Source: Nemertoderma westbladi (taxonomy: Eukaryota; Animalia; Xenacoelomorpha). From it: DNA of 64,000 nucleotides. The position numbers and the translations under genes are program-made. This document shows positions 601 through 57,674 of the stretch, piece by piece (within the stretch, counting starts at the first letter, position 1; each line of letters opens with the position of its first letter). The stretch spans positions 11,959 to 75,958 of the forward strand of contig JAUCBJ010000812.1 of assembly GCA_032718475.1 (NCBI GenBank). The letters run 5' to 3'. The notes under the pieces are model-generated. The model was not told where the DNA came from and did no database searches. It worked only from the letters and a program-made list of their open reading frames with translations.

Positions 601-615
601 GTAACAGTTTATACT
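601..615 (+). other. Non-tRNA primer-binding site of copy A (GTAACAGTTTATACT)
   Basis: Abuts the LTR end, has no TGG, and is complementary (14 bp with a 1-nt bulge) to AGTATAACTGTTAC inside the LTR (10556-10569 in the 3' LTR copy). Confidence 0.65.
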
Positions 616-2789
616 CTTATTGCAGTAGGCAATAAGGTTGCAAAATACCGTAGTGACTGGTAAAACTGAACCGGTACTTTGTAGGTCAGTAGGCCTAACT
701 GTCATCACCGGTACCGGTACTGCTGTACAAGTACATTTAGTATTATTCGATTTGATTATTGTATACTGGTAGGTCTTAGTACTTAATCAGGGACTGCAGC
801 CCTGAATTTTTTATTGAGATTTTACCTATTTCTGTCGGTTTTATTTCCTAGTAGGCTAATATTCAGCAGAAGGCGTGTGACCCTGCTCAGATTGTTCAGA
901 TAATTGTAGGCTGAGCTGCTGTTTGACTGTTGTTGAGTTTGGAGAGATTGCGGCGTGTGTAGAGTTTGTCTGATAAAGTGCCGTTAGTAAGTTGGGGCAG
1001 CCATATACGGTAAGGTCAATCCCCTCTTAAAGAATAAGTCGTACTACCGTGTTAGAACGCATACTAACTAACAGTTTCAGAGTCTGCATATACTGTAGTT
1101 TATCTAGGCTTGATCGTAGTCTGCCAGTGTTTTAGCCTGAGTTTGTTTGTGTGGTCTGTTCAGGTACCGTAATAGTTATTACTTAAATATTTGTAGGCTG
1201 GATTGTTGTCTAGCTATTTTAGGTCTGAAGGGATTGCTGCGTGTGTAGAGTTGGTCTGATCAAGTGCCGTTAGTAAGTTGGGGCAGCCATATGCGGTAAG
1301 GTCAATCCCCTCTTAAAGAGTAAGTCGTACTACCGTGTTAGAACGCATACTAACTAACAGTTTCAGAATCTGCACATACTGTAGTTTGTTTAGGCTTAAT
1401 AGTAGTCTGCCAGCATTTGGTTTGTATTTGTTTGAGTATTCTGTACGGGTAGCGTAATATTTATTATTCAGAGTTTATGCGATTATTCGCAACATTCATG
1501 TCCCCAAGTTTATTCCTACAGTAATTGTGCTTGTTATACATACCGTTATAGTTAAACTAACCCCGGTACTACATCAGGGCTGCTTGGCGTAGGTAAAGAC
1601 TGACGACATTGTGCATCGGTCACTCCAGCAGATGCCGTGGTTCTTTTAACTGTTCAAGTATATTTAACTACTGATTATTTGTTATACCGGTACTTGTACC
1701 TAATTTAGGGTTTAGTGTACAGTGCTTTCCGAAGTAATTAGTGTAGGCAGTATATTTGTGTTGTAAAGTGGTTGATAGGCACATTCGTTAGCTCTATTAG
1801 CTTCTGGGTAGGAACAATCCGTGATACATAACGTAGTACCTATAGCGATACGGTTATAGGTCGTCAGGCGGTGGTATTTTCCTATCTGGACAGTACAATA
1901 TATTTACTACTTATTATTTCAAATACCGTAGTACCCTGTCCGTTGTAATAACCAGAAATCTAACCCTTTGTTGGACTGGTTTGTAGACTTCCTGTAAAAT
2001 TACCCTAAAAATTTCGTACGTAATATTTTGTTGTATTTAATTAGAGAATTAATCTCACCCGTATCGTAAGTAATTTGTAGTATTAAGTAACTTAGGTAAA
2101 TTAGAATTATCAGTTTTAGTGTCAAATAAATAGCACTTCACTGAGAGGCGTTCAGCTTCTGTGTAGTGACTCCCCCAGAAATAATAACATTTATTTCAAA
2201 TATTGACAAAAACCCATATAACGGGTATATAAATATTATAAATCAAATCAAACGATTTATAAATAGTAGGCCTGTCATACAACAACTAGGTCTCACTACC
2301 AGTTGGACTACTGCTTAAACAACGGTAATAAAGTAAGTTAAAGTAACTAAGTAACCTTAAAATATTCAGAAATTCAATTATTCTAAAAATAATTGACATA
2401 CCGGTACTTACTATAGGCTTATTATATTTATTTCTATAAATTTGAGCTGAAATCATACCGGTATTCTGTAATTAATTTTAGTTCATAATTATACTTTATA
2501 TATTATAAGTGTAAGCTGTATACCGGTATCCACGATAGGCCTATTATATATTTATATATTTATATATATATTTGTGCTAAATTTATACACCGGTACTCTG
2601 TGGCAAATCTAGTCTGTAATAATACTTATATATACTATAAGCATACCGGTATTCTGATATAATATATATATATCCCGCTATATTAAGTAGCAGTATCGGT
2701 AATTAATTATTAGGCTAGCAGTGATACTGAATTACTAGACTTGCTTTAACTGTATTTATAGCTGTAGGCATTCGACTGTGTAAACAAAC

Positions 2790-5700: not shown

Positions 5701-6931
5701 TGAGTTCGAACGAGACAACCCGAGTCAGGTAAGTGAGCCCGAACTACATGTCCAATTCAGTGATGTGAACGACACTGACCAAGGTTCTGAGTGGGAAGGA
5801 TTCTATACAGACGAATTCTCCGATGCCAACGAATCCTGTTATCTAATAAATACCACAGTGTATCGAGCACTTACGAATGAAAAGGACACTGACGAGTTTA
5901 CTCCAACTCCTTTTGACAAACAACCATCTTGGAAAGTTCCAACTTCCAACATAGGAATAAGAGAATTTCCTGTAGTGCAAGTTCGAGTTCATGGTCCCAA
6001 CAAGAGTTACATAGTGAACGCCCTACTTGACTCCGGCAGCACAGGAACATTCATCGATCAAGAACTAGCCGAAGATATCTTTGCTGGACAACCCAAATTC
6101 CGGACTAAATTGAATATGTCAGGAATTATGCAGGTTTGGAAATCTACCCTAACGGCAGATTACTATGTAGGTGTGTTGTCCACCCCCCAGGATAAATTAG
6201 GAGCACAAAGTATAAGGTCAGTAAAAATGGTGGCTATAAAGAACTTCGCTACTACCCAAGCAGACCTTTATAATTGGGACGAGGATGAGTGCATCCAACA
6301 TCTTGAGATACCTCGATTCCAAACCGATTATCCTGGAGTGCAAATACTCATCGGCCAAAACGCGCATGAGGCGCTCGAGCCATTAGAGAAACGGCCTGCT
6401 CAACCACAGCCACTACAAACCTATGCGGTAAGAACTAGAGTAGGTTGGTACTTCACTGGCCCTTCCCGTAGAACTCTCAAAGAGAGATTACCTCAACAAC
6501 AGGTATACCAAGTAAAGGGGGAAGTGGAGAGCAGTGATGTGGACGATCCAACTGAGGGAACACCATACTCCTCAGATAATGACGATATTAACTCCAATGT
6601 AGATCAATGGAGACATTGCCTTGAGACGATTAATCCAGCCAACATCGCTTCCAGAGGAGCAACTCCTCAAGAACTGATAGATACTCCAGGCTGGTTAGGT
6701 GGATCCGACTCCTTAAGTAAAGAAGAAGAAGAATGGCCTCCTCATCTTACCACGGCAGAGAGTAGACAGGCCAAGGGAGCGGAGAAACTAACACAACAAC
6801 TCAATCGCCCAGCTGGTCGTTTATGTTTACTGGAAAGAGACCGAAAACTGTCCGGAAACTATGGAAGGCAAGATACTCTTCCTACGACCACTTCCCTAAT
6901 CCGACAAATATCTAGGGACTCTATAACGTAA
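2790..6931 (+). pseudogene. gag-protease with deleted pol (copy A); frameshift near 4176
   Basis: ORFs 2790-4241 and 4184-6931 align to copy B gag-pol: capsid-like IVKFNGDEMKWLPF..EKLRFL, three Pao-type Cys/His knuckles, protease ALLDSGS. The protein then jumps to QWRHC..NPANIASRG and then to the C-terminal LNRP.GRLCLLE. Confidence 0.9.
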
Positions 6932-8553
6932 TAACATATGGAGTGGGCGTGTGGCTATATCATTTTATATTTGTTTTTATTTTATATTTATGTATGTATT
7001 ATTATGTAATTTTATTATAATCGTTTTCTTTAATTTTATTTAGTAAAATGTTATTTTAGAAAATTTAGTAAATTAGTGCAATATATTAGTGTTTATTACG
7101 TACATAATTACTTATAATATATATTTAGTGCGACGGCGAGAAATAATTATTTTCTCTTCCCTTACTGTCCGTATCATATTATAAATACGTGACTACAGTA
7201 AGATGAAATGTCCGTACTTATTAAAGTACAATAAAGCTCCTACTGTATTTAAGTATTATTGGTAGGCAGAGTATTAGGAATGCAAAGTTCAGATCCTCGT
7301 GTCTCGGCTAAACCAAGCTCTGGGTAGACCTTGGAAACGACTTGCCTCTTCACACTGACATTGCTTCGTGCGATATTGCTCTCATACCGTATATTAAATA
7401 ATACATATAGTAGCGTGATGTCCCTTTAACAGTAGCGTATAACGCAAAATAAATCTGTTAAACTTTTGACCATCTGTAATTCTAGTCGATTAAGATATCG
7501 TGGCACCCACCGATATACTTGAAAGACAAATTCTAGAATCAGTGGTTAACGTCCCCAGACAAGTTCTGGAATAAATCGGTGCCCATCCTAAATATTAATT
7601 TAATATTTTGTTAAAATCTGTAAAATCCCGATCCTTTAAAATTTCTAGTCAATTAAGATATCGCAGTATTTACCGATATTCTTAGAAGGACTATTTTATA
7701 GAATTAAGGATCCTAAGTCCCCAGATATGCTCTGGAATAAAATTTATGTCAATTTAATATCAAATAATAAAATTCACGGGAATAAATTTAAATTCATATT
7801 CAAATGAATTTCATAAATTGTCATTTTGTACAATTTATAACATTCCCAAAATTCCAGTAATTAATAGATCATGGGAGCGGAGTTTCATATTGAGTGTACT
7901 AGAGTGTGAGAATCTCCAACATATAGTCAATAGCCGATAAAATTTATAAAATCATGCATAAAGAGGATATTGACAATTAAAGAATTACTATTAAATAACA
8001 TCCCAGATCTGTATGCATGAGGATTGCCCTAATTCTACCGCTAGTTTTCCATAATGTCACCATGGCAACACCCACGCTAGAATTAGAAACAAGTTAAAGG
8101 ACCAATAAAAGCTTGCCCCATTGCGTAGCATAAGAGTATACATAGCGCACTATTAGTATCCAAGGATACATAGTAATAACGTGACATTCTGGAAGACACT
8201 GACTAACGGACAAATGGCATGCATGTGTGCAATAAGTAATGATTGTATGGAATTTGTGCGTTTATAGGTGAATGTTACTACTAAAGTGTGTTTACAGTAG
8301 CTAATCGCAATTGTAAAATAGCCCTAACTCTACCAAGATAACCTCAAGTGGATTCAAGCCTTTGGGACGGACAGTGGTGGGACTTGTGCCGGTTATCGTT
8401 GTCGTGCTGTTGCTACATGTTGGCGTAAACACTGCGACAGTGGTACATCGGCGCTGAGAAACCCACTGTCCGGGGGCAAAGCCTAGTAGGCAGCGACGCC
8501 CGCTTGCCTAAAATATTAACTCATATTGATATTAATAAACTCAGATAGCAGAT

Positions 8554-10002
8554 ATGACGGAATTGATAGAAGATGACCTTGGTATTAGAGAGCGATATAA
8601 TCTACCTTTGCAAGCGTTTGTGGATAGCTTGATACGCGGTGAAGCCGATCCAACTATTACGGAGGACGATGGTTGTTATATCGAACCGCCGATGTCCCAG
8701 GAACAACTTACGCGTGAAGCGGAATATAGAAAATTCACCGCTCGCTATACGAATCGCAATGGTACGTATATGGACTTCCTAACTACCGGCCATCCTATCG
8801 ATTTACATGATACGGACGATGTAGACACCGAAAGGGAAATGGTTCTATTTAAATATCATACCCAGCGGCGTCGTAACGATAAAACGAGAATAGATCACGA
8901 AAATTCTATTCGTAACAGACTGGGAAGACGAACCAATATGTCTAGAATCTGAGGAGATTCAGCCTATCGCGCTCGGAACAGCGACAACGATTACATCCTA
9001 GAATGGTATCAAAGTCCACAGTGTCTCACTGCGTACGATTATCGCCATGCCAACTATGTTTCTCGGCAACGTTGTCGGTTATGCGCATCGAGAGACCATG
9101 TTACGCCCATGGACACAAACGTCCGCTGTTCCTATTTCCACGAACAACCGGCGATGGAAATTTATTGCGCGTATTGCAGATTTAATAATTTGCACATTTT
9201 TGCGGTTTGCCCTCAATTTATGACTCAATGTCACCATTGTCAACTAAAGGGACATGCCAGTTTCGATTGCCCTTTTAATCACGATTTGGAAAGCGTAGAT
9301 GAAATGATCACACTACGTTACATCAGAGCTTGGGAAGCGAACACTGATTTATATTGTGATTCACGCCATCGCTATTATCCTGGACGCGCCTACGAAGGAG
9401 TTTATGCGTTCCATCCATATTTGTTTGCCTCCGTCGAGCAGAAATCGCGCCTATCAAGTTATGAACTATTGAAGCGCGTTGGAGAATGTATTTCAACCAA
9501 ATATGTACGCAAATTCCTCAGGAGCATTAATCCGAGTGACATCAATTCGTATAACTTAATAAACTTTATCCGTCAAGATCCGGCCTATGGAGACTTATTT
9601 GTCAACTCACACCCTGAGTTACAGGAAGTATATCGATGGCCTTACGAGTACAGAGCCCGCGAACGCGAGTTGGAAGGAGCCGTTGGACCAAGGAAGTTTC
9701 TAACTGCCTATGGTCCACCCACGGCCCTCGTTCAGACCACTCGTAAAGGACCCGTAAGAGCGGCTGTCTTGAAACGAGCTCTCAAAGCCGTTAGACCCCT
9801 CTCCCCGGACGTTGATGTCAGTCGGCCCGGTGCTTCGACTGGCGGGTATACCGATCGCAATCCCATACCTTCTGATGCAATCATATTGCACTCTTCACCC
9901 AGGAGTTATAGCCCTCCTCGTAAAGTGGCTCGCCCCAAAGAGAAAAGGACTCTTGCTAGCTTTAAAAAACTGCGTAAACGCCGTCCGCGCAAGAAAGACT
10001 AA
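8554..10002 (+). pseudogene. Internally deleted ORF2 of copy A (N-terminus plus C-terminal zinc-knuckle part)
   Basis: 8554-8920 matches the start of 52169-54685 and 8924-10002 matches the end of 54532-56421; the junction is at the shared sequence GAAGACG. Confidence 0.9.
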
Positions 10003-10072
10003 CTGTTTAGAGTATTTTTATATTTTAGAAACTGTGATTTTGTATATTTTATAGACTTAAATCCCATTTTCT

Positions 10073-10080
10073 GGGAGCGG
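10073..10080 (+). other. Polypurine tract of copy A (GGGAGCGG)
   Basis: Directly abuts the TG of the 3' LTR; identical in copy B (56492-56499). Confidence 0.75.
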
Positions 10081-11310
10081 TGTAAAAGCTTCTGTGGGAT
10101 CTAACTGGCCCCTTTTGCTTCGCAATCCAGTTTCCCCCCAGGCGCTGGAATACTCTAAAAAGGTTCTCTAACTGTATATATATTCCCCTCGCCCGCAAGG
10201 TACCGTTACAGGTGTTTTAACGGACATAAAAGTCATTCTGCTATATACGTGTTTTGGCGGACATGGTAAGGCAAAAAACCTGCAATGCACCAACTACCTT
10301 TCACAGCTTAGCCGTGATGATTCATATTACGACATCTAACAGCTGGTTGCTGACATGGAAACAGCCAGTGGATGCATGGTTCTTTGTTTGGCTTGAGCCA
10401 ATCAGAGCGATTTTTCCTGTCGACGTGTAGCTTTTCGGCCGATCATAAGGAGAGTGTTCAGTCTTACTGTTTTCACTTGATACTTTGTTGTTATTGCTGT
10501 CTAAGCCAGAAACACCGGCTCTAAGAACTCTAGTAAAACTGCTTAGATTATAGAAAGTATAACTGTTACCGGCGGTGTTACCTCACTTAATTTAACTGCA
10601 CTAATCATATTGTTTGTACTGCTATTTACCGTCAGTTATTAATTGTATCTATTTGTTGATGGAAATATTGCTCTTTGGAGAATACGGATAAATCACCCAA
10701 AATTCCCAATTTTCTTGATACACTACAGGTTAGAGAGGCGGGCTATATATAACAATTGCGATTTATATCAATGTGGTGTGTATTGAATCTAATGTTATTT
10801 AGTAGACACTACCTGAGTCAATTGCTGTTCTCTTTATGTGTGATCAAATATACTGACGGTCGGCAGAATAGTGTGCATGATTGTGAGTGTGATGTGACTG
10901 GTAACAAAGCATTTCCTAAAGAATGCGACTTATACTTTAATCATAAGCCTTATCGTTGCGTTTAGTATAAGTCCTAGCTCTGTTTAAATAGATAGAGCGC
11001 CACGTCCTAAAGGAACTGTTAATATTTCCCGAAAGTTAATAATATCTGTCAGAAATTACATATTAGCGATCAATCGAATAATACAGTAGGCTTACACTGC
11101 AACCTTACACTGCAATAATAAAATCTAAGCATCCGAATTCAGCCTCCCGGGTGTAGATCCATCGGGTGAATGATCGCGCATGGGCTGGCTTCGGCTAATG
11201 TTTTGTTTATTAGCATAAAATATTGTCGTATGCTAAAGGTGTGTTAATTAACTAAAAGACATATAAATTTTGGCAGGTTAAACTGCTAAAGGTCTTCAAA
11301 AGCGCGAACA
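10081..11310 (+). repeat. 3' LTR of copy A (1230 bp, TG...CA)
   Basis: Starts TGTAAAAGCTT like the copy B LTR, ends AACA, and follows the PPT. Confidence 0.93.
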
Positions 11311-12098: not shown

Positions 12099-12100
12099 GA

Positions 12101-24048: not shown

Positions 24049-24088
24049 CTGAGTTGGTTTAATTACATGAAATATTTAATTTTTCCAG

Positions 24089-38938: not shown

Positions 38939-40113
38939 TGTAAAAGCTTTTGCGTAATTAACCGGTTATTTCCCCTTAAAGTACTCTGTAGTTGGTTTAC
39001 CAGGCATAAAAAGGCCGTGTCCTTACTGTACTGGTGTTTTAGAGGACATAAAAGTCATTTCTTCTGTATTTGTACTTTAGAGGACATAATCCGCAATCTC
39101 GTGACGCGATAAGCTAGATACTCTTGAAAACAGTGTCGCTACCATGACGACGGCTAACAGCTGATATTGCCACGTCGACATTTCTTTGTTTCTTTGTTCT
39201 CTCGTTGTTCGGTTGACCAATCAGAGCGTTTTTTGACTCTGTGTTGGAGTTGGATACAGAAACTCAGTAGTTCAGTGTGTTATGTTTTGCCCAGAGCCTA
39301 AGAACACCGGCTTTTGGCACCTCCGTGTTTCAGTCTTTAGTCTTACATTAGTAGGCTTAATTATAGAACGTATATCTGTTATCAAACCAATTCAATGCAA
39401 TTCATACTAACTATGCAATTCATATCTTACTTACTTGCCATATCTTACTAATATTACTGCTTTTACTGTCGGTTATTCATTATATTGGTTGATGAAATAT
39501 TATATCGGAATACTGATCAATAGTCAGACACCCCACCTTCTTGATATACTAAAGGTTAGAGAGACCGGTTACAGATAAACGATTGCGACCTATGTTAAGT
39601 GGTTTGAAGTGAATCTAATGCTATTTTATAGGCCCGACATAAATTGTATGTTGCTCTCTTTATACGTGACCAAATTTAGTGAAGGTCGGCAGATTAGTGT
39701 GCAGTATTGTGCAGCATTGTGTATGATTGTAACTGATAACAAAGCATCTCCTAAAGAATGCGCCATATACGTGAATCTATAGCCTTTTCGTTGTGTCTAG
39801 TTTAAGTCATAACTCTGTTTATATATTTAGAGCGCCACGTCCTAATGGAACTGTTAATATTTCCCGAAAGTAAATAATATTTGTCAGAGATTATATATTA
39901 CAATCAGTCGAATAATACGGTAGGCTTACACCATCAATCATTAAGCTTCCGAATTCAGTCTCCCGGGTATATCCAACGGGTGAATGATTGCGCATAGACT
40001 GGCTTCGGCTAATGTAGTGTATCAAATACTCGTCATAGGCTAAAGACTATATATCATCTAAAAGACATCCTAATTTGGCAGGTTAAACTGTCAAGGTCTT
40101 AAAAGCGCAAACA
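38939..40113 (+). repeat. 5' LTR of copy B
   Basis: Matches 56500-57674; I could spot only about four substitutions by eye. Confidence 0.97.
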
Positions 40114-40124
40114 ATAACAGATAT
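40114..40124 (+). other. Non-tRNA primer-binding site of copy B (ATAACAGATAT)
   Basis: Abuts the LTR end; perfect 11-nt complement of ATATCTGTTAT at 39372-39382 in the LTR. Confidence 0.65.
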
Positions 40125-42404
40125 TGATCTAATCCAGAAACAATAACAGATATTTAGTTCTGATTGCGGTGTAGGCAATAAATACAGTTTAATATTGTTT
40201 TGGTAAAAACAATAACAGATATTGCTTCTGGATTGCGGTGTAAGCAATCTAGTCGAAAGTACCGGTCGACCGGTAACCAGTAGGCCTGACTGCCTGATCA
40301 TCCGGACCGGTACCTACAGTAGTACAGGTACAGCGGTATTATTCGATTGTGGTATTGTATACCGGTAGGCTGTTTAAGAGATTAGGGACTGTACACCCCT
40401 TGTTTCTTTTGGAGCTTACTTATTTCTGTCAGTTTTATTTATTTGTAGGCCAGTATTGAGCAGAAGGCGTGTAAGCCTGCTCAGATTGTACAGATAATTT
40501 GTAGGCTTGACTGTTGTCTAACTGTTGTTAAGTCTGAACGGATTGCAGTGTGTGTAGAGCATCTGTCCGATGAAGTGCTAGTTAGGAAAGTAGGGGCTTC
40601 AAGTGCTGTGAGGTAAACCCCCTGTGAAAGAATAAGTCGTACTACTGGGTTAGAACGCATACTAACTAATCATTTCGGAGTCTGCATATACTGTAGTGTA
40701 TTTGGGCTTGATAGTAGTCTGCCATCGTTTGGTCTGTACTTTGTTTGTGTAGTCTGTACGGGTAGCGTATAATTTTATTTAGATAATTTGTAGGCTGGAT
40801 AGTTGTCTGGCTGTTGTTGGGTTTGAGGAAATTTCGGTGTGTGTAGAGCATCTGTCCGATAAAGTGCTAAGTTAGGAAAGTAGGGGCTTCAAGTGCTGTG
40901 AGGTAAACCCCCTGTGAAAGAATAAGTCGTACTACTGGGTTAGAACGCATACTAACTAATCATTTCGGAGTCTGCATATACCGTAGTTTGTTTAGGCTTG
41001 ATAGTAGTCTGTCAGTATTTGGTCTGCATTTTGTTTGAGTAGTTTGTACGCGTAGCGTAATATTTATTATTCAGAGTTTATGCGATTATTCGCAACATTC
41101 ATTCCCCAAGTTTGTTCCTACAGTAATTGTGTTTGTTATACATACCGTTATAGTTAAACTAACCCCGGTACTACATCAGGGCTGCTCGGCGTAGGTAAAG
41201 ACTGGAGATTTTGTGCTTTGGTCACTCCGGCAGATACCGTGGTTCTTTTGGCTGTTCAAGTATTTTTAACTACTGATTATTTGTTATACAAGTACTTGTA
41301 CCTAATTTAGGGTTTAGTGTACAGTGCTTTCCGAAAGCAATTAGTGTGTAGGCAGTGTATTTGTGTTGTAAAGTGGTTAATAGGCACGTTGGTTCTGGTA
41401 GACCGCGGTAATTAATCTCTAGGTAGGAACACTCCGTGATACATAACGTAGTACCTATAGCGATACGGTTATAGGTCGTCAGGCGGTGGTATTTTCCTAT
41501 CTGGACAGCGCAGTATATTTACTACTACTTATTATTTTCAAATACCGTAGTAACCTGTCCGTTGTAATAACCAGATATTCTAACCCTTTGTTAGGCTGGT
41601 TTGTAGATTCCCTGTAAAATTACCCTAAAAATTCGTATTTGTGTATTGGTAATTAAATTTTTTGTGTTTATTTAGAGATTGTAATCTCAACCGGAATTGT
41701 ACGTAATTTGTAGTATTAAGTAACTTAGTTAAATTATAATTATTTGTTTTAGTGTCCAACAAGTAGCACTCCACTGAGAGCGCACAGCTTATGTGTAGTG
41801 ACTCCCCCAGAAATAATAACATTTATTTCAAACATTGAAAAAACCCATTTCAACGGGTATATATATATTATAAATCAACTCAAACGATTTATAAATAGTA
41901 GGCCTGCCATACAACAATTAGGTCTCAATATCAGTTGGACTACTGCTTAAATAACGGTAATAAAGTAAGTTAAAGTAACCAAGTAACCCTTAAAATTCAG
42001 AAATTCAATTATTTAAAATAATTGATATACCGGTATTTACAATAGGCTTATTATCTTTATTTTCATAAACTTAGGCTGAAATCATACCGGTATTCTGTAA
42101 TTAATTTTAGTTAATAATTATATTTATATATACTATAAGTGTAAACTGCATACCGGTATCCACGATAGGCCTATTATATATTTATATATTTGTGCTGAAA
42201 TCATACCGGTATTCTGTAATTAATTCTAGTTACTAATAATACTTATATATACTATAAGCATACCAGTATTCTAATATTATATATATATCACGCTACACTG
42301 AGTAGCAGTATCGGTAATTAATTACGAGGTTAGCAGTTAATGTTGAATTACTAGACTTGCTTAGACTGTAATATAGCAGTAGGCATTCAACTGTGTAAAC
42401 AAAC

Positions 42405-45400
42405 ATGTCTGATACTAAGCAGAACCTGTCAGACAGTTTATTAGATGCAACTATTTGCGACTCAGATAAGGGTGTAGAACCGTCTACACCTAAGTTCAGT
42501 TCACCTCCCACTGTGAGGAAGGTCATCCCTCCAGTAGTAATAACAGAACCTAGGCTGGTCCAACACCATAGGTCTATCATAGGCACTCGAGCCCAGGTCA
42601 AGCGGGACCAAGAAGCAGCGGAACAGCAACAACCCGCGAGCCAAGAACTTATTTCTCAGCGGCCCAACAGCTCCAGTAGTGAGGATACTGTAGAGCTGAC
42701 ACCTGAGCGCGGAGCAAAGATGACGGATGCGGTTTATTCGGATCCCCTTCTCATCCTTCCTGCAGCCGTACTCACTAGGATATTGATCGCGGTGGAAGAA
42801 CACCAGATCGATTGGGCGAGAAGTAAGCGATCGACTAAAGATAGTTATGCGGGATACACAAAGGAAGAACTGAAATCTATTGTCGAGTCGCAATGGAACT
42901 TCCCCGGACCCGGACTCCCGTTTGATTTATCAGAAGCTGCCTGGGAAGACATACACCGGATGGGAGTAGCCAAGGAAACCATCGATCCAGCTGTGTGGAA
43001 GAGGTCCGCAGCCGGATACGCACAGGGATTCTTCAGCTCTATGGAGCGAGTAAAAGAACAACTGTTTCAACAACCTCAAGGACCTCAAGAGCAGGGACAA
43101 CTGCTTTATCAAGTTAGAGAAAGAATTCTGCGAATTAGGCTAATCTTATCGGCCTTTGAGGAGGCTTCTAAAAGAAGACAAGACACGTCGTTGCAAGTTG
43201 CCGTAAAGACTTGGTTTCAACGGGTGAGTCTCCAAGTTCAAGGAATGGCTCAGTGGAAAGCTCAGCTGGAGGAGCGCTCAACCCATGGAGAATCAACAGA
43301 CGCTACTTTTTCCCAAGTGGAAAGTGAAGCGACGGCAGAGAACCCGCATAAGAGGGATGCCATTGATATCTATCTGTCAGACTATCAACGTTTCTTAGGT
43401 GATGAAGAGTTGAGGAGAAGGTTGGATGGACTTAACCCTAATAGTGAAGGAGCACAGCGTGTGCTTGACGCCATCGACGTGGATAGGTTAGCGGCGAACC
43501 AAGCTAAATTCGATGAACGACTCCGCATCGCTAGAGACCAAGAAGAAAAGGTGAAGAAAAAACGCATAGAAGACAGAAAGAAAGCAGCAGTAGCAGCTGC
43601 AGAAACCGAAAGGAAAGCAGCCGAAGAGGAAAGTAAAGCAGCCGAAATGGAAAGAAAAGCGGCCGCGGCAGAGGCAGAAGCGAAAAGAAAAGCGGCAGCG
43701 GCAGAGGCAGAAGCGAAAAGAAAAGCAGCCGAAATGGAAAGAAAAGCGACAATGGCAGCGGCAGAAGCAGAGCGGATAGCGGCTGAAGAGATCGCCCAAT
43801 TAGAATTGGAAAATATTCAGGAGAATCAAGACTGCATAAATAAACAGTTAACAGCTAGTAATATGCAGATGATGAATCGATCTACTCCCAAAAGACAGGG
43901 ATATACATCATCTGAGGAAGGCGATAACACCGATACTGAAGGCAAAGGAAATAGATCTCACCTAAGCAGACGTAAAAGAACATCCCACCGTCAGAAATTG
44001 CCTGATTTGCCTCCAGCTGTTAGAAGGCAACTAAATAACACCAACTTAGGTAGTACAGAACCCACAGACCAAATAATTACAATAGAGAGACTCCCTACTA
44101 TAGTAGATGAGCCTGAAATAATTAGGCCTGTTCCCGAAGCCACCCTTTCGGTGGTAGAGACACCTGTACTCCCTGAACCTACCTCTAAATTCCCTTTGCA
44201 CAGTACCAAGCTACCTGTGCCCAGCAGAACAGCCCATGAGACAGTTCATGCCCTGGACTCTGAGCGAAATATTCATGATTTGTCGCCCGTTGTCCCTCGT
44301 CCGCCCGCTACAACGTTGGCGAATCCCGCTTCGGCGGTCGAATGGGTGGATGAGAGACGACGGGGGATGGATCTCCTGCTCGGACAGATACAGGAGACCG
44401 TTCAGCAATTCAAGGGCACAGTAAGGGAAAGTAGGCTAGAGTTGCAAGAAGTGCAGCAAAGTATCGCGCTAGAACGTGATAAATTAGTAAATACACAAAA
44501 GGGTATACCACCACCCCCTGTAACAATGTGTCAACCTGTTAGGTCTGAAGTATCTCATGCGCAAGGTGTGGAGCCTACACGCATCTATACTGCTAGCGAA
44601 GTAGAAACTCCTATAGTGAACCCTATTAAGGGTAATTATAGACCTGTTGATAATGATATTCCCTTTAGACCGGATCATAATCCGAGAAATTTATATACCG
44701 ATAACTCGATATTAAATAACACGATGGCCCAAGAAAGTTTTACGCGTCAAATGGCTAGAACCGAAGCCCGGCAAGCAGTAAAGGTGGGAGAGATCGTCAA
44801 GTTCAATGGAGATGAGATGAAATGGTTACCTTTTAATGAATATTACAAAGATAACATACAGAATTCTGTGCTATCTAATGGAGAGAAACTTAGATTCCTC
44901 ATCGAGTGCTTGGAAGGATCTCCCAAGTTAATGGCGTTAAAGTTTATTGGACATCCAGACGGATTAAGACAAGTTTGGGATACACTAAACATCAGGTATG
45001 GTAATAGGAATAACATAGCTGGGTATTTGTATGCAAAGTTGGTAGCGCCCCGAAAGTTTATTAGCAGCGGAATTATAGAGTTTTCCGATGAAATTCAGGA
45101 GATCTGCAGACAATTAGATTGGCTAGGTAAGTCTCATGAGTATCAGAATGCTATGGTTATTAGAGCAGTGGCTTCTACTTTACCGAAGGGTGGAGTAGGG
45201 ACACGCTGGGATAAGAAAGTGTTATATATGATGGAACAACAACGACGAGACCCTACCATGGCTGATCTCATGTCATTCCTAGATGGAGAAGTGAAATTAC
45301 AGCTCCTAAAACTGTCCAGAGAGAAGACACCGGAAAACAAGGTAAGTGAAAAACCCGTCTCTAGGAGAAAGGTAACACCTGAGTGTTATACAGATGACGG

Positions 45401-48400
45401 CGAAAGCCAGACTTCTCAAGGAGAAGATAGCGGGAAAGACACTGACAGATCTTATTACGTAAATAAAATGCCTAAAGATCAGGTAAGTAAATTCAAGTCT
45501 CGAACCAATGACAGGAGAGAACAGGTAAGAAAAACTCCTCCTACGTCTCCCAAGAGAATTCAGGTGAGAAAGCCCGAAGAAAAGACAAGTGTACACAATG
45601 TTACTCAGAGTAAGGTAAGTAACATCAAACCGAAATGTGCGCTATGTGATGGGACCCATCGCTTAAATATGTGTGATGAATTTCTAAAGAAATCATTAAC
45701 TGAGAGACGTGAAGTCATGTGGGATAAGCGGTTGTGTTATAATTGCCTCAGACAAGGACACCAATGGCGAACCTGTTACTCTGACACAAGATGTGCCAAG
45801 TGCGGTGCGAAACATCATATCTTGTTGCACACTGAATTCGAGCGAAATAGTCCGAGTCAGGTAAGTGATTCCGAACTACATGTCCAATTCAGTGATGTGA
45901 ACGACACTGATCAATCTGAGATGGAAGGATTCTATACGGACGAGTTCTCCGACGAAAATGAATCCTGTTACACAATAAATACCACAGTGTATCGAGCACT
46001 CACGTATGAAAAGGATACGGACAGCGACCTTACCCTAACTACTTCTGATCAACAACCATTTTGGAAAGCGCCAACTTCCAATGTAGGGATTAGAGAATTT
46101 CCTGTGGTACAGGTAAGGGTCCACGGACCAAAAAGGAGTTATGTAGTGAACGCCCTCCTTGACTCCGGTAGTACAGGAACATTCATCGACAAAGAGCTAG
46201 CCGAAGACATATTCGCTGGACAACCCAAGTTCCGAACTAAGCTAAACATGTCAGGAATTATGCAAGTTTGGAAATCCACAGTAACAGCGGATTATTATGT
46301 AGGTGCGTTGTCCACCCCCCAGGACGAACTAGGAGAACGTAGCATAAGGTCAGTGAAAATGGTGGCTATAAAGAACTTCGCTACTACCCAAGCAGACCTT
46401 TATAATTGGGACGAGGATGAGAGCATCCAACATCTTAAGATACCTCGATTCCAGACAGATTATCCTGGAGTGCAAATACTCATCGGCCAAAACGCGCATG
46501 AGGCGCTCGAGACATTGGAGAAACGGCCTGCTCAACCGCAGCCACTACAAACCTATGCGGTAATAACTAGAGTAGGTTGGTACTTTACTGGCCCTTCCCG
46601 TAGAACTCTCATGGAAAGATTACCGAAAGATCAGGTATATCAAGTGCGAGAATGGGAAGTTGAGAACAGTGAGTTCGACGATCCAACTGAGGGAACTCCA
46701 TACTCTTCAGACAACGACGATATACATCAACTCTTCGATGAGGAGAATGCCATCGATCTCCTTGAGGAAAGCGAGACTTGGCAAAATCAAGTGAACTTAT
46801 GTCAACTCCTTCTCCCATCCGAGCGAGACGACTATAACGACGAGCTTAATGACGTCATTGAACGTTATAATGCCAAGACTCGGGATGAACACGCCGTAAG
46901 ATTCTTTACTCAAGAGGTTGTAGAGCCCAACTCCTACAATAAGGCCCTATCGGTGGAGGAAGAAAGAGCCAAGCAGATCCAAGCGACAACTACTCGTTTT
47001 CTCAAAGATCAAGGTAGGTTTGAAATCGGACTTCCTTTCCGAAAGCGAGAACCGAAGTTCATTAACAACAGACCTTTGGCAGAGAAAAGAATTGCGCAAC
47101 TACATCGACGCCTTACGGCAAATTCTTCAGCTAAAGAAATGTATCAAACGCAGTTGAAGAAGTTTATTAGCAAGGGATATGCGGAGCTAGTACCGGAAGA
47201 AACACCTATAACGTATTATTTAACTCACCATTACGTTCCCAAACCCGGCAAACCCCATGAAGTACGAGTGGTGTTTGACGGTTCCGCCCTTTATATGGGC
47301 CAATCTCTTAATTCTGAATTGTTACCCGGACCCAACTTACTCCAATCCTTGTTGGGAATACTATTAAGATTAAGACAATATTCCATTGCTTTCGCCTCAG
47401 ATATAGAAGGCATGTTCTTACAAGTCAAAGCGCTGGATAGGGATCGAGATAGTCTACGATTTTTGTGGTGGCCCGAAGGAGACCTCAATAAGAAACCGGT
47501 GGAGTACTGGATGACCATCCAAGCTTTTGGGATAATCTCGAGCCCTTCAAACGCCTGTTCCGTGGTGCGCACTACTGCGGATGACAACAGAGACGCCTTC
47601 TCTAAAGAGGTGATCGACAATATCAAATGAGACATCTACATGGACGATAATCTGAAGTCCCTTCCATCAGTCGAAGAAGCCATTGAGGTCGCTAAAGGAA
47701 CGGTAGAATGCTTAAAGAAAGGTGGATTTCGATTAACTAAATTCACCAGCAACTCCCGTGAGTTTCTGGAGTCAATCCCGGTAGAAGATCGAGGAACAAA
47801 AGACCTAGATCTAATAAAGGATGATCTCCCAGAAACTAAGACCCTTGGTTTGAAATGGGACACAGAAAGAGATATCCTGTTTTTCCAACTAAAACAGCGA
47901 GATAATCCAGTTCGGACTAAACGGATATGTTTAAGTATCCTGAGCACTTATTTCGATCCATTGGGATTTATTAGCCCAGTTATATTAATTGCTCGGAGTT
48001 TAGTACAACAAATGTGGCTTGAAAACCACTCATGGGACGATCCACTTAAGGGAGAATTATTAAAGAAGTGGATGAAATGGGAAGAGTCTCTACCAGCCAT
48101 CGAAAACTTTATAATTTCCCGTTCATATTTTGGTCATGTTCTCCCTACGTATTCATATCAACTCCATGTGTTTGGAGACGCCAGCGATATGGGAATCGGT
48201 ATAGTAGCCTACCTAAGGGTGGAAACTCCGGACGGAATTAAAGTCGCCTTGGTTACCTCTAAGGCATTAATAAACAACAAGTTGAAAGTTCCTCGAGCGG
48301 AGTTAAAAGCGGCTCTATACGCTACAGCCATCGGCCGGAATGTAACAGAACAGATCGACTATCCCCTGGACAAAACTGTCTATTGGACCGACGCTTTACT

Positions 48401-50522
48401 CGTGTTGGAGTATATAACCAATGAAGTCTGTCAGTTCAGCGTCTTCGTTACCAACAGAGTAGCTATTATACTCAGTCGCACGACGATGGATCAATGGAGA
48501 CATTGCCCCGGAACGATTAATCCAGCGGACATCGCTTCCAGGGGAGCAACTCCACAAAAACTGGTAGATACTCCAGACTGGTTAGGTGGACCCGACTTCC
48601 TCTACAAAGAAGAAGAAGAATGGCCTCCTCATCTTACTACAGCAGAAATTAGACAGGCCAAGGGAGCGGAGAAAGTCAAGCCTAAAACTCAGGCGAGTAA
48701 ATCGAAGTTATTCAAACCCACAGTAGATCTGTCTGTACTACATACTTCCGGAGACGACGCTTTGGAGCAGAAACCCACAGCCACAAATAAACCCATTGTG
48801 GAAATCCGTGATAAGGATTGGAAATCTGGTATACCAGACGTCTCGCAAGGACTCTCACCTCTTCTGCAGAGAGCGATGCATCACTACAGTTCCTGGAATC
48901 GGCTTTGTAAGGCCGTTACATATTTAAAGAGATGTTTTCACCATCACTACTCTGGGATGAAAACAAAGGGTGATACCGCTCCAATCACATCAGTGCAGGT
49001 CCATGTTATTAAAGACCTTCCTAAATATAAGGTACCCGACAAGTTTCTGAAGGAGAAGATCAGTTATCAGGAGCATGAAGAAACCAACAAACAGATGCTG
49101 AGACTCTTACAATGCTATGAAGATTCCGATAAGTATTTCCTGTTGTTGAGAAATCCACAGATGCGCTTAAGGGATCGTTTCTCTAGCACAATGATAGATG
49201 GGTTGATACGTGTTGGAGGAAGGTTAACGAATGCCCCATTATCCTTTGATACTAAGTTCCCCATACTCATTAGAAATCTTGAAATACAAGTCAAGATGAT
49301 TGTAGATGTTCACAGCAAACTTTATCATGCTGGTAGAGAACGAGTTCTTAGCGAAATCCGAACTCGCTATTATTTTTATAAACCCCGTAGAGCTCTGAAC
49401 CAAGTTCTTAGGAACTGTATACCCTGTAGGAAAGCATTCAGTAGGCCTTTAACACAGAGAGAGGCAGAATTACCTAGGGAACGAGTAAGCTTTTATGAAC
49501 CACCCTTTACTAATACCGGTGTGGATTTATTTGGCCCTATTGAAGTATATCGTGCTAGGACTATAGTCAAGAGATGGTGTGTAATCTTTGTTTGTATGAC
49601 TTGTAGAGCCATCCATCTCGATATGGTGAACGATTTATCTACCAACAGCTTTCTATTAAGCTTACGACGACAGATCGCTCGCTTTGGCACTAGTAACACG
49701 ATGAGATCTGATAAGGGAACAAACTTCATTGGTGCCAACAATGAAATCAAAGCTTACGTCAAAGATTGGAACCAAAGACAGGTGGACGACCAACTACGAG
49801 TAACAGCGTCTAGTTGGACCTTCAACGCCGCCGACGCCCCTTGGTGGGGAGGAAGTTGGGAGAGATTAATAAGAAGTGTGAAGACGGCATTTCATTTTAT
49901 AGTGCCTTGCCGCGCTTATCTCACCGACGAACTTTTGCGGACGTTAATGGAAGAAATCGCCGTCTATCTCAACGAGAGACCGCTTATGCCAGTCTCATCG
50001 AGTCCCGATTCCCTGGAAGCGCTAACACCCGCGCACTTCCTACTGAAGAAACCTGTAGCCATGCTCCCACAATCGGAAATCACAGATGGAGACGAATACT
50101 GCCGACAAACTTGGCAACTCATGCAGTTGTTATCCCGTCGTTTCGCTGACCATTTCGAAAAACATTATCTGCCCACGCTACAACTTCGAACTAAGTGGTT
50201 TGCGCAGCAAGAAAACGTTAGCGCTGGAGACATGGTTCTTATTGTGGATGTAGATCTTCCACGTAAGAGGTGGCAGACAGGTCGTATCATCGAGACTCAC
50301 ATCTCGGATGACGGTTTGGTGCGATCGGTAGAACTCGTCGTCATGCGACGTAACTTCAAGAAACCGGGAATAGTCTTCGAGACGCAGCAGCTCAATCGCC
50401 CAGTGGGACGTTTATGTTTACTGGAAAGAGACAGAGAACTCTCCGGAAACTATGGGAGACAAGATACTCTTCCCACGACCACCTCCCTAATCCAACAAAC
50501 ATCTAGGGACTCCCCAACTTAA
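42405..50522 (+). CDS. BEL/Pao Gag-Pol polyprotein (~2705 codons) interrupted by one in-frame TGA at 47628-47630
   Basis: ORFs 42405-47630 and 47640-50522 are in the same frame (IK*DIYMDD). Motifs: capsid-like FNGD..W..F/EKLRFL; CCHC-CCHC-CCHH knuckles; ALLDSGS; VRVVFDGS, SDIEGMFLQV, YMDD; RNase H HVFGDAS/RAEL/YWTD/NPAD; integrase HHCC, GVDLFGP, RSDKGTNF, WER. Confidence 0.95.
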
Positions 50523-52168: not shown

Positions 52169-55100
52169 ATGACTGAATTGTTAGAAGATGATCTTGGTAT
52201 CAGGGAGCGATATACTCTACCTTTACAAGCGTTTGTCGATAGCTTGATACGCGGCGACGCTGGTCCAACTACTACGGAGGATGATGGTCGTTATATCGAA
52301 CCGCCAATGTCCCCGGAGCAACTTACGCGTGAATTGGACTATAGAAAGTTCACCGCTCGCTATACGCATCGTAATGGTACGTATATGGACTTCTTAACTA
52401 CCGGCCATCCTATCGATTTACATGATACGGACGATGTGGATACCGAAAGGGAAATGGTTTTATTTAAATATCATACCCAACGGAATCGGAACGATAAGCC
52501 AAGAATAGAACACGAGAACTGTATTCGAAACCGACTCGAAAGAGAAGACGTTGAAGAACCGGATAAACGCAACGACTTCAACGATTATCTGGAATTCTTG
52601 AGAGAAACATACCTCAATATTGCCAGTCAACAAAATCTCGAGACTCGATATCCTCAAGGTATACATCATGATCCTATGATAGAACTCAAACGACTCTATT
52701 TCACTATGATGTATCTTACCGCCGATCGACCGCTACCTGTTGTCCCAGATAGCTTCGAACAGATGGAGGAATATTGTAAAACTGGAGAACGATCACCCGC
52801 GTTTCCTCTGCAGGACATGCGTCTTTGGTATTACTGTGACGAATGCCCTAGACCCAATCAGCAAACGGAAAGACATAAACATCCGCGGAGACGTTGCGCT
52901 AAACACAGTTTTACACGATATACTTACGGGAGTTTCGAGCGAAACCTGTTCGACGTGTCCCCTGCGGTCGCTCGACTCAAGCGATCCTTGAACAAACCGA
53001 TGATCAGAGTTCCGGAATACTCGGTCAGACCTCCGCATTCCTTAGTCAGACCTCAAACTCTTGACCCTAATAGTATCACGGATCCTCGCGAACTGTACTC
53101 ACTGTTCAAAGATCTAGTGTTACCCGAACAGTTGATCGGTGGCACTCCAGTAGTAGGCTCACGGGACATTCGCCAACCCTACCTAGCTGGATTGGGACGT
53201 GGTCATCTAATATCGCCGTTTAACCCATACAACCGTCCCGGCTTCACCTCTATCCAACCCGTTACGGAAGTCGAAGAGAGCGTCGTACGAAACGCATTAG
53301 ACGCTATTCGGCAGAAAATTGGAAAGGGAACGTACGATTGTTTGGAGAAGCGTAAATTGCAGCAACAAGTCCAAGCGGTGAAGGAATTAGCTTTACCCCA
53401 GTTCGATAGAGAAATACAAAATCTCGAGGAGGACATCGAACGTGGACGAACCTACTCTTTACAAGAGTTTCTAGATGAGCGTCTACAACAACAAGCGGAG
53501 GAGAATCAGCTCGAGGAGAGACATATAGAACTGGATGAGAGAGAAGAAGCGGCTTTAGCTCAACCCGAAGCGCAAATCCTTATGACGGATCTCTACTCTA
53601 AAACCATTCTTCATCCCTCGATGGTTCCCCATTTCGGAGACAAACTTTTTGCGACGGCACAACCCCAACCGGTTGATATCAACCTAAGATCTCGCGATCT
53701 TATCGCCGACGCTCCTCTGTTGCAGCGTCCGCCCATCGAATCCGCTTGTGTCGATGGTATACTCGTTGAACCTCCGGACAATAGAGCAGATCTTGTCCGT
53801 CGCATGGTACACGATGTAAACATACGCGCTAGACCTTTACCGGACTCGTTTTATGGGATCAAAGATCACCCTTATTACGTCAATCTAAAACAATATTACA
53901 TGGTAAAACCGGAAGATCCTACACACAGTCTGAAGTTTCTACCGTTAATAAATCCTCTCGATCTTGTCGATCTCGAACAACTGCAGAAACATCTGGATCA
54001 GTTAGTTAAAGTAAACTCGTTTCGAAAACCATATAATGTTTCCAGAATAGAGAAAGAAACAATACCTCCGTATAATCTTGATGGATTCATTAAAACTCGT
54101 TTAGTGCACTGGAATCTTGATGTGTTATTCGAGGAGGAAAGAATACAACGATATGGAGATGTGGAAACATATACCACACAATATTTAAAGTATAAAGACC
54201 TGCCTAATGCTAGCGAATGTGCTACCTTGTGGCATCCTGTGGGAATGACACTCGAAAACGCCACTAAAGAGTGGAACGAAACTCTTAACGTTATCGAGAT
54301 GTATGGAGTTGTCACTTACGATAATGAAGGTAGCGTTCCGGTTGGAGAACTTGGAACTACGCGGATGATACACATACGAGGACTCGCTGGTTCTACCCAC
54401 GTATTTACTCGAGCGTGTTCCGACGTTATTGATTATTCTTTTAAACTCTTACTGAGACACAAAAGAAACTCCGACATGGACAATTTGAACTCGCGCAGCG
54501 TTACGTCACCGACACCGAGCGCAAACCGGCCATGGGTATCGATGGATCGATGTTACCCCAACCCGTGCTCGAGATGTTGTTTAACGAAAGAATCCTTAAA
54601 ATCGGCTCAGCTGTTTTTGGAGACCTACAGAACGACTTTCGGAATATGGAGAACATTCCATACCCCTTCGTTGATACTCAGCTGATTGCTCCTTGGGCAG
54701 AAGGCCGAGGTTTCTTCCGCACTATGTACGCCAATACACCCAGCGGTATTACTAAAGTACAACGAACCTCCATCGGACATCTTGCCTTTCAAGAATACGG
54801 ATGGAATTTCAAGGTTGGAAATCCTATAAATTACCAACAAGTATACGGAGATCATTATTCTCGTTTATACTTTGATGGACCGTTGACCGCACCTGGCGCC
54901 GTGTATAGCTTTATGAGTGTTCCACTTCGTCCCTCCTTAGCTATATACACGATCTTTGAAAACGCAGCACTTGCCGGTTGGCTAGCCGATGTGTGCAGTC
55001 GTACCATACGCGCCCATCCCTTAATACTCGGAACCAAACTCGCCAAGTTAGATGAACACAATAAATTCATCCGCTTTGAATGTTTCCGGCGCTTTCTGAC

Positions 55101-56421
55101 TCCGTTCCGTAACGTTGATAGTCAGTTCAAGGACCGCGCTCTGACCAAACTCAGCCTGAGAGACTCAGCGGCGGAGAAGCTAAACAGCGCGGGATTTGCC
55201 CTTTTTCAGGACGTTTGTATACAGAACTTACATTCATCTGTTATACAAAGACCCCGAATACCCACGGGTTATTCTGTCGTCGAAGTTCAGACAGTGGGTC
55301 CGCTTGCGGAGACAGCCGCACCTACCTCAGCTATGCAATTGGAAGACGAACCAATATGCTTAGAAGCTGAAGCGATTCAGCCTACAGCGCCCCGGAGCAG
55401 CGATAACGACTACGTCTTAGAGTGGTATCAAGGTCCACAATGTCTCACCGCATACGATTATCGACACGCTAACTATGTTTCTCGAAAACGTTGTCGATTA
55501 TGCGCATCGAGAGACCATTTCACCCCTATGGACTCAGACGTACCCTGCTCCTATTTCCACGAACAACCAATGATGGAGATATATTGTGCGTATTGCAGAC
55601 TTAATAACTCTCATATTTTTGCAGTCTGCCCCCAATTTATGACTCAATGCCACCACTGTCAACTTAAAGGACATGCCAGTTATAATTGCCCCTTTAATCA
55701 TGATTTAGAGAGCGTAGACGAAATGATTACCCTGCGCTACATTCGAGCTTGGGAAGCGAACGCGGATTTACATTGTGAGTCCCGTCATCGATACTACCCT
55801 GGACGCTCTTACGAGGGAGTTTACGCGTTCCATCCTTATTTATTAGCGTCTGTGGAACAAAAAACACGCGTACCGAGTTACGAGCTAATGAAGCGCGTTG
55901 GTGAGTGTATTTCCACTAAATTTGTTCGAAGATACCTTAGGAACGTCAATCCTAACGATATTACTTCATACCATTTGATCAATTATATCCGTCAAGACCC
56001 TGAGTATGGCGATTTATTTATCAACTCGCACCCTGAGTTACAGGAAGTATCTCGACGGCCCTACGAATATCGAGCCCGAGAACGCGAGCTGGAAAGAACT
56101 ATTAAACCAAGGAAGTTTCTCACCACTCACGGTCCACCTACCGCCGTTGTCCAGACGACCCGTCAAGGACCAGTAGGAGCTGCTGTCCTAAGACGCGCCT
56201 TAAAGGCCGTTAGACCTCGCTCCGCTGAAGTTGATATCGATCAACCAGGAACCTCGACCGGCGGATACACCGATCGCAATCCGAAACCTTCTGATGCAAT
56301 TGTATTGCACCCTTCACCCAGGAGTTACAGCCCTCCTAGTAAAGTGGCTCGCCCCAAAGAGAAAAGGACTCTTACTAGCCTCAAAAAACTGCGTAAACGC
56401 CGTCCGCGTAAGAAAGACTAA
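52169..56421 (+). CDS. Retrotransposon ORF2 (~1417 aa if the single frameshift near 54445-54530 is repaired): DEDDy 3'-5' exonuclease-like domain plus three zinc knuckles
   Basis: ExoI VVTYDNEG (54308-54331); ExoII LPQPVLEMLFNERILKIGSAVFGDL; FVDTQ; SIGHLAFQEYG; ExoIII PLRPSLAIYTIFE; then CRLC..H..C, CAYC..H..C, CHHC..GH..C and a basic C-terminus. No signal peptide or TM segment. Both ends are conserved in copy A. Confidence 0.8.
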
Positions 56422-56491
56422 CTGTTTAGAGTATTTTTATATTTTAGAAACTGTGATTTGTTATATTTTATAGACTTAAATCCCATTTTCT

Positions 56492-56499
56492 GGGAGCGG
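56492..56499 (+). other. Polypurine tract of copy B (GGGAGCGG)
   Basis: Abuts the TG of the 3' LTR. Confidence 0.75.
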
Positions 56500-57674
56500 T
56501 GTAAAAGCTTTTGCGTAATTAACCGGTTATTTCCCCTTAAAGTACTCTGTAGTTGGTTTACCAGGCATAAAAAGGCCGTGTCCTTACTGTACTGGTGTTT
56601 TAGAGGACATAAAAGTCATTTCTTCTGTATTTGTACTTTAGAGGACATAATCCGCAATCTCGTGACGTGATAAGCTAGATACTCTTGAAAACAGTGTCGC
56701 TACCATGACGACGGCTAACAGCTGATATTGCCACGTCGACATTTCTTTGTTTCTTTGTTCTCTCGTTGTTCGGTTGACCAATCAGAGCGTTTTTTGACTC
56801 TGTGTTGGAGTTGGATACAGAAACTCAGTAGTTCAGTGTGTTATGTTTTGCCCAGAGCCTAAGAACACCGGCTTTTGGCACCTCCGTGTTTCAGTCTTTA
56901 GTCTTACATTAGTAGGCTTAATTATAGAACGTATATCTGTTATCAAACCAATTCAATGCAATTCATACTAACTATGCAATTCATATCTTACTTACTTGCC
57001 ATATCTTACTAATATTACTGCTTTTACTGTCGGTTATTCATTATATTGGTTGATGAAATATTATATCGGAATACTGATCAATAGTCAGACACCCCACCTT
57101 CTTGATATACTAAAGGTTAGAGAGACCGGTTACAGATAAACGATTGCGACCTATGTTAAGTGGTTTGAAGTGAATCTAATGCTATTTTATAGGCCCGACA
57201 TAAATTGTATGTTGCTCTCTTTATACGTGACCAAATTTAGTGAAGGTCGGCAGATTAGTGTGCAGTATTGTGCAGCATTGTGTATGATTGTAACTGATAA
57301 CAAAGCATCTCCTAAAGAATGCGCCATATACGTGAATCTATAGCCTTTTCGTTGTGTCTAGTTTAAGTCATAACTCTGTTTATATATTTAGAGCGCCACG
57401 TCCTAAAGGAACTGTTAATATTTCCCGAAAGTAAATAATATTTGTCAGAGATTATATATTACGATCAGTCGAATAATACGGTAGGCTTACACCATCAATC
57501 ATTAATCTTCCGAATTCAGTCTCCCGGGTATATCCAACGGGTGAATGATTGCGCATAGACTGGCTTCGGCTAATGTAGTGTATCAAATACTCGTCATAGG
57601 CTAAAGACTATATATCATCTAAAAGACATCCTAATTTGGCAGGTTAAACTGTCAAGGTCTTAAAAGCGCAAACA
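56500..57674 (+). repeat. 3' LTR of copy B
   Basis: Matches 38939-40113. Confidence 0.97.

Follow-up and report, generated by a model that had tools for sequence, protein, structure and literature searches.

We analyzed a stretch of 64,000 nucleotides from Nemertoderma westbladi (assembly GCA_032718475.1, contig JAUCBJ010000812.1, positions 11,959 to 75,958; hereafter the window), in which a long terminal repeat (LTR) retrotransposon carries, between its polymerase gene (pol) and its 3' LTR, a third open reading frame (ORF3) with a predicted exonuclease domain and a triple zinc knuckle. The element spans 38939-57674 (18,736 bases) and is bounded by TG...CA LTRs of 1,175 bases each, with an identical 5-mer flanking both ends as a 5-base target duplication. 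The 5' and 3' LTR regions differ by 6 mismatches and 2 gaps over 1188 columns, and given so few differences the insertion is taken to be young. It sits inside a 22-base tandem array, its reverse transcriptase (RT) region is broken by a stop codon at 47628-47630, and an Rfam scan of the element found no match. A second, internally deleted copy (the sister element) lies at the start of the window.

Pao-specific gag and pol domains are present in the order protease, RT, RNase H, then integrase (Pfam; RT from motifs only), and the combination of DUF1759, Peptidase_A17, Integrase_H2C2, and DUF5641 therefore points to a Bel/Pao-type element. The Belpaoviridae profile of the ICTV, the international virus taxonomy committee, gives a tRNA-Arg or tRNA-Gly primer site, a length of 4.2-10 kb, and env as the sole third gene (PMC8742986). 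The window element departs from this profile in its length of 18,736 bases and in lacking a TGG in the 40 bases next to the 5' LTR, where neither window copy has that motif; a tRNA gene search across the 64-kb window found none. Judged by its domains, we conclude that the element is of Bel/Pao type, in an atypical form.

ORF3 occupies the env position in the sense direction, beginning 1,647 bases past pol and stopping 78 bases short of the 3' LTR. An earlier note on this DNA had described a sense ORF of about 4.25 kb between pol and the 3' LTR; its coordinates (52169-56421) are borne out, and the peptides it quoted across a frameshift are all present, divided between two frames that overlap (52136-54685 with 54445-56421; first ATG at 52169). 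As it reads, the window copy is unable to make the exonuclease domain in one piece. In four of four runs, the contigs differ in length from the window copy within the break zone, and the break is therefore considered a lesion or assembly error of the window copy; a programmed frameshift was rejected on the same comparison. Besides the break, no insertion or deletion in the contigs reaches a 25% share across the 701-base exonuclease domain. Over 19-residue spans, hydropathy peaks at 0.82 in one half of ORF3 and at 1.19 in the other, values low enough that a transmembrane segment is absent, as the earlier note had held, and an env identity was rejected on this basis; no dedicated signal-peptide predictor was applied to the accompanying claim that a signal peptide is lacking.

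The 1.65-kb noncoding spacer between pol and ORF3 (50523-52168) is kept at 88% in the sister element. It contains an internal duplication near 51080-51360 and, ahead of the ATG, a TATA-like run (52127-52136) that is a possible internal promoter. The unassigned N-terminal region of ORF3 includes a Cys/His cluster (CxxC...HxH...CxxH, 52835-52906), possibly an extra zinc site, and the basic C-terminal tail may serve in nuclear import or RNA binding.

The window domain very probably has a DEDDy-type (RNase D-like) fold, a judgment that runs through a relative, P0001. When 1.84 billion proteins were scanned in full by HMMER, the C-terminal half of ORF3 gave two matches, of which P0001 (E 1.6e-6) is 30% identical to the window domain over 150 residues and likewise has an exonuclease domain followed by a triple knuckle. 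When the P0001 domain was used to search the Atlas, 25 of 30 matches were PF01612 clusters (best 0.94, with the family on 34% of members); the closest clusters were fungal (unnamed) and plant PF01612 proteins, and no subgroup was indicated. None of the comparisons made here singles out the WRN/EXD/MUT-7 group, the label given by the earlier note, from other RNase D-like enzymes. Against an RNase D/PolA profile built from 11 sequences (fetched loci), P0001 scored 21.4 bits, and the window domain, scored read-through with X placed at the frame break, reached 8.2 bits, a value attained by none of 2000 shuffles (maximum, 4.8). Taken together, the window and P0001 aligned with this profile at an hhalign probability of 94% (E 1e-7; score 53, where 100 column shuffles reached no more than 19), and the ExoI D-x-E and the ExoII D were in register; the window alone reached a probability of 16%. 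In NCBIfam, the window piece matches RNase D models best (E 0.005 and 0.026), along the ExoII stretch. The window aligned with its relatives from ExoII through ExoIII (probability, 90%), placing its Glu on their ExoIII acid; in E. coli RNase D, too, the ExoIII acid is the residue opposite this Glu.

All five codons that the earlier note had singled out (D at 54320, E at 54326, D at 54622, Y at 54946, and E at 54958) lie where it had put them. It was also right that the last Asp is replaced by Glu, as ExoIII reads Y-x3-E in place of the canonical Y-x3-D, in the window and also in P0001 and P0006. Its proposal of a DEDDy-type fold with the expected order and spacing is supported for the fold, by way of P0001, NCBIfam, and the RNase D/PolA profile, but the spacing between ExoI and ExoII is enlarged. 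These motifs are ~100 codons apart, compared to 57-71 in five references, which we attribute to an insertion of ~30 residues that contains the frame break; from ExoII to ExoIII there are 112 residues, compared to 70-77 in two E. coli references. Given the Glu at ExoIII, we regard the domain as a DEDDy-derived variant and not as a canonical member. Chains of EccB1, L37, and enterotoxin A (E 0.2-0.8) were rejected as chance matches, and phage matches of the window piece below 0.9 in the Atlas were rejected as leads.

The triple zinc knuckle proposed for the C-terminal part was recovered as three CxxC..H..C units (55492, 55585, and 55648), although only the third has the canonical CX2CX4HX4C spacing. 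The knuckle-module profile matches the knuckles of HIV nucleocapsid (E 6e-4), Lin28, and Air2, all of which bind RNA. The idea that the ORF3 knuckles are a copy of the Gag knuckles of the element is unsupported (profile score, -1.1 bits).

ORF3 is under strong purifying selection, and this includes the exonuclease domain. Between the two window copies, the ratio of nonsynonymous to synonymous substitution rates (dN/dS) is 0.15 over 123 shared codons of the N-terminal region (interval, 0.06-0.28) and 0.10 over 342 C-terminal codons; constraint is strongest in the knuckle part, at 0.06 over 174 codons, and the comparison value for gag-protease is 0.175. Because the sister copy lacks the exonuclease, contigs were used to assess selection on that domain. 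There, 35 of 39 differences are silent, compared to an expected 23-30%, and none alters any of the five named codons; these 39 are the 40 best-supported of 127 differences minus one at the break, and they form a selected subset of nonindependent events. Over the whole of ORF3, silent changes make up 26 of 37 listed differences (from 40 listed of 1645). The earlier note had named two results that would speak against it, the lack of a predicted DnaQ-like fold and unconserved acids with a dN/dS near 1; the fold is supported by the homology described above, and the ratios found are far below 1.

A search with the triple-knuckle module recovered four metagenome loci (one of which, L001, encodes P0002) and five more proteins, with 10 distinct relatives in all. 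Viral contigs, prokaryote genomes, and plasmids yielded no relatives, and word-based searches with the C-terminal half of the window protein (longer proteins) and with the P0001 domain gave nothing new. Twelve columns of the module are invariant in a 7-row alignment. Upstream of the knuckles, 6 of the 10 relatives (P0001, P0002, P0003, P0004, P0006, and P0007) have an exonuclease-like part. Its tie to the RNase D profile is statistical for P0001 alone; the other five were assigned by motifs and weak mutual scores of 12-15 bits, with the motifs judged by eye in P0003, P0004, and P0007, which by themselves do not match the RNase D profile (probability, 0.5%). At ExoIII, P0001 and P0006 carry Glu, P0003, P0004, and P0007 carry Asp, and P0002 has no acid; all four acids plus the Tyr are present in the window, in P0001, and probably in P0007.

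The sole relative with genomic context, L003, encodes a knuckle-only ORF 3' of a Bel/Pao pol (Peptidase_A17 E 2e-44), across a spacer of 1.69 kb compared to 1.65 kb in the window element. The knuckle-only ORFs of L003 (5423-8212) and L004 (615-3329) have a common region ahead of the knuckles, with no Pfam match. In L001 (1009-1995, P0002), the knuckle-plus-extension module stands in tandem duplicate behind a degenerate exonuclease-like part. This module, which occurs with nuclease domains that look live, look dead, or are absent, is apparently undescribed before.

The primer-binding-site position of the window element is the exact complement of an 11-base site in its own LTR (Table 1), a match equaled in 18 of 5000 resampled LTRs, and in a fold of 39369-40135 the resulting duplex has a pair probability of 0.85-1.0. 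In the sister copy, 601-615 pairs with 10555-10569, the homologous LTR site, through two runs, of 9 and 5 bases, on either side of a bulge; a 9-mer matches by chance in a fixed window in 21 of 20000 trials. Two compensatory changes separate the window copies at this duplex, and the cross-pairings are weaker, in a comparison of two copies. The pairing suggests self-priming in a Bel/Pao-type element, with end-to-end cyclization as the alternative explanation. As described in the available text of PMC7175516, PMC6317226, and PMC4600332, ~11 primer-site bases of Tf1/sushi elements similarly pair with their own LTR and not with a tRNA; those elements, however, are Ty3/gypsy chromoviruses whose primer is made when RNase H cuts the transcript at its 5' end, whereas the window element is of Bel/Pao type and is known from DNA only. 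No report of self-priming Bel/Pao elements was found in the accessible portions of open papers (including PMC4600332, PMC3601003, and PMC6317226).

We tentatively favor the reading that ORF3 is a conserved accessory gene for a predicted RNA-binding 3'-5' exonuclease that may trim the 3' ends of RNA from its own element. Enzymes of the RNase D type shorten single-stranded tails as far as a duplex. The knuckles would hold the element RNA inside a particle or ribonucleoprotein, and the nuclease would chew a single-stranded 3' tail back until it reached a duplex. The most specific candidate for such a duplex is the primer-site pairing of 11 to 15 bp; trimming there would free a 3'-OH for extension by RT. 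The primer-site pairing tilts toward processing of the element's own RNA, and no evidence here favors counter-silencing over it. A much stronger version, in which this Bel/Pao lineage dropped tRNA priming and an active D-E-D-E-y exoribonuclease, guided by the knuckles, matures the element's own primer, strikes us as decidedly unlikely; if true, it would add a third route to the two that use a tRNA primer or self-cleavage by RNase H.

Several results weigh against ORF3 as an RNA-trimming nuclease. Neither half of ORF3 has an exonuclease match in Pfam, for which P0001 itself reaches just E 0.2; six PDB searches gave no exonuclease match; and the Atlas returned just unrelated matches, at 0.88, for the C-terminal window piece (without ExoI). 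Short ExoI and ExoIII profiles made from the relatives fail to detect the window segments, and Glu at ExoIII is noncanonical, with no literature found on such a variant. Among the relatives, the ExoI D-x-E is intact in only three of six (it is changed in P0002, P0004, and P0006), and the knuckle module stands without an exonuclease-like part in P0005, L003, and L004, with none found in L002; the constant feature is therefore the knuckle module and not catalysis. There is no direct tie between ORF3 and the primer, and the link is weakened further by Tf1, which, in the available text of PMC7175516, self-primes with RNase H alone. A PHROGs search also gave no exonuclease match, a Pfam scan of ORF3 no HRDC domain, and a hidden Markov model of the domain from six relatives gave the window no higher score than shuffled sequences. 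Two AlphaFold models, from 1 and 4 sequences, both have a predicted local distance difference test (pLDDT) score of 31, too low to inform on the fold.

Some of these observations would suit a catalysis-independent RNA adaptor, similar to Egalitarian or EXD1, that binds element RNA for transport, packaging, or 3'-end shielding, with a nuclease that is weak or dispensable. The Glu at ExoIII of the window domain, the altered ExoI acids and knuckle-only genes among the relatives, and the greatest constraint in the knuckle part (dN/dS, 0.06) all fit such a role, and the available text of 10.1101/2025.08.03.668247 describes Egl as retaining the five residues yet functioning when they are mutated, and Exd1 as inactive. 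Nevertheless, we consider an adaptor somewhat unlikely, as the window, P0001, and probably P0007 retain the four acids and the Tyr, and the tallied contig differences (39 from the best 40 of 127) leave the five residues untouched.

It is unlikely, in our estimation, that ORF3 encodes a counter-silencing nuclease, active in trans on behalf of all family members, that over-trims or destroys host PIWI-interacting RNAs (piRNAs), small interfering RNAs, or the precursors of these. The 3' ends of mature piRNAs are 2'-O-methylated and resist trimming, no tie of the domain to MUT-7/Nibbler emerged, and this analysis yielded no positive evidence for such a role. The abundance of this family in the runs, the constraint on ORF3, and a basic tail that is possibly a nuclear signal would be compatible with counter-silencing, as would the work of the host relatives MUT-7 and Nibbler in small-RNA pathways (discussed in PMC5408684). 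The available text of the same paper, however, reports no clear link between rotifer DEDDy ORF3s and copy number and describes rotifer ORF3s as covered by small RNAs like other ORFs. Finally, a coincidental motif match, or neutral captured host DNA, is very improbable despite the missing Pfam and PDB matches, the pLDDT of 31 in both models, the Atlas blank for the window piece, and the broken window copy, because the dN/dS is far below 1 (which largely refutes neutrality), relatives have the same layout, the profile match reaches 94%, and the break is not common to other copies.

A DEDDy ORF3 is known from the rotifer elements Juno and Vesta, with the pattern DEED and proposed roles in RNA 3' processing or silencing (Rodriguez, Kenefick, and Arkhipova 2017, PMC5408684; restated in the available text of PMC5718144 and PMC6431247), and the cargo is therefore less novel than the earlier note had proposed. 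From the available description in PMC5408684, the bdelloid Juno/Vesta ORF3 (shared with Athena/Terminon) is like that of the window in being a sense gene 3' of pol in the env position, without a transmembrane segment, with an RNase D-like DEDDy domain; both have an altered acid pattern and the same two proposed functions, and the window gene is known from sequence alone. Unlike Juno and Vesta, the window element is of Bel/Pao type, its pattern is D-E-D-E and not DEED, and its domain forms part of a ~1,400-residue protein that also has a triple knuckle; the likeness as compared here is one of description. In the same available text, no deviation from neutrality was seen in those rotifer ORF3s that were tested (of the env and GDSL types), whereas the window ORF3 is strongly constrained.

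Compared to cellular RNase D-like nucleases, a group that includes RNase D, WRN-exo, EXD2, Nibbler/MUT-7, Rrp6, Egalitarian, and EXD1, the window domain aligns with RNase D at the ExoI D-x-E, the ExoII D, the D-T motif that follows, and the ExoIII Tyr, but differs in the ExoIII Glu, the ~30-residue insertion, the long ExoII-ExoIII distance, the lack of an HRDC match, and the fusion to knuckles. Dada DNA transposons are also mobile elements with a DEDDy-type exonuclease; in the available text of Kojima and Jurka 2013 (PMC3706591), that domain lies inside the DDE transposase and is thought to process DNA ends, whereas here it belongs to a separate retroelement gene. No report of an exonuclease ORF3 in Bel/Pao elements was found in open papers; Repbase, GyDB, subscription journals, and supplements, the element sequences of PMC3118150 among them, may hold cases. 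The word "exonuclease" is not in the main text of PMC3118150 or PMC12440569. We conclude that the new aspects are the predicted Bel/Pao host lineage, the domain layout, the putative D-E-D-E-y site, and the candidate self-pairing primer site. The function of exonuclease ORF3s has been an open question since the 2017 rotifer report, which in its available text showed neither activity nor selection (PMC5408684). The strong selection on the window domain and a concrete candidate substrate, the self-pairing primer site, bear on this question, and with the ORF3 family the choice among processing of the element's own RNA, counter-silencing, and an RNA adaptor becomes directly testable.

Table 1. Features of the ORF3-bearing retrotransposon and its sister copy (window coordinates)
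Feature	Position	Strand	Evidence
Sister element, internally deleted (pol mostly missing, as is the central part of ORF3 with the exonuclease)	1..11310	+	Copy comparison
5' LTR, TG...CA	38939..40113	+	Alignment to 3' LTR; target duplication outside
LTR site complementary to primer-site position, candidate self-primer	39372..39382 (3' LTR: 56933-56943)	+	11/11 Watson-Crick pairs
Primer-binding-site position, not of tRNA-3'-end type; motif again at 40143 and 40212	40114..40124	+	No TGG
gag, protease, first part of RT	42399..47630	+	Pfam DUF1759 E 2e-10, Asp_protease_2 E 0.006; RT motifs by eye
Remaining RT, RNase H, integrase	47631..50522	+	Pfam Peptidase_A17 E 1e-36, DUF5641 E 8e-20, Integrase_H2C2 E 4e-7
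ORF3 N-terminal region, ~680 residues, no family	52169..54199	+	No Pfam match; none with relatives
Predicted exonuclease domain of ORF3, DEDDy-type (RNase D-like), D-E-D-E-y variant	54200..55020	+	Profile homology, selection
Frame break of window copy, within exonuclease domain	54430..54450	+	ORF frames; contig comparison
Triple CCHC-type zinc knuckle and conserved C-terminal extension	55492..55890	+	Profile matches; dN/dS 0.06
Basic C-terminal tail of ORF3, 16 K/R in 45 residues	56284..56421	+	Composition
3' LTR, short purine-rich tract just before	56500..57674	+	LTR comparison

Over the 601 bases seen, the two LTRs of the sister element match at 100%. The joint in its ORF3, corresponding to 52537 to 55341, recurs in contigs of X4 and X5, and the sister is therefore likely a replicating nonautonomous derivative without the exonuclease. 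Further joints (53530 to ~56285), in contigs of X1 and X3, omit both the exonuclease and the knuckles and represent more deletion derivatives.

Elsewhere in the window, a single-exon ORF of 998 residues (17936-20932) with cadherin-type repeats and a transmembrane segment is protocadherin-like by eye, which fits an animal host. Inverted copies of a ~2-kb repeat, 88-98% alike, lie at 31521-33480 and 59521-61835 and probably represent another mobile element. A short ORF at 35230-35679 resembles, by eye, the C-terminal end of the RT protein of a non-LTR retrotransposon. Tandem arrays occur at 12037-13321 (36-base unit), 23687-24083 (13), and 62563-63895 (18), in addition to the 22-base array that surrounds the element (38582-38938 with 57675-57883).

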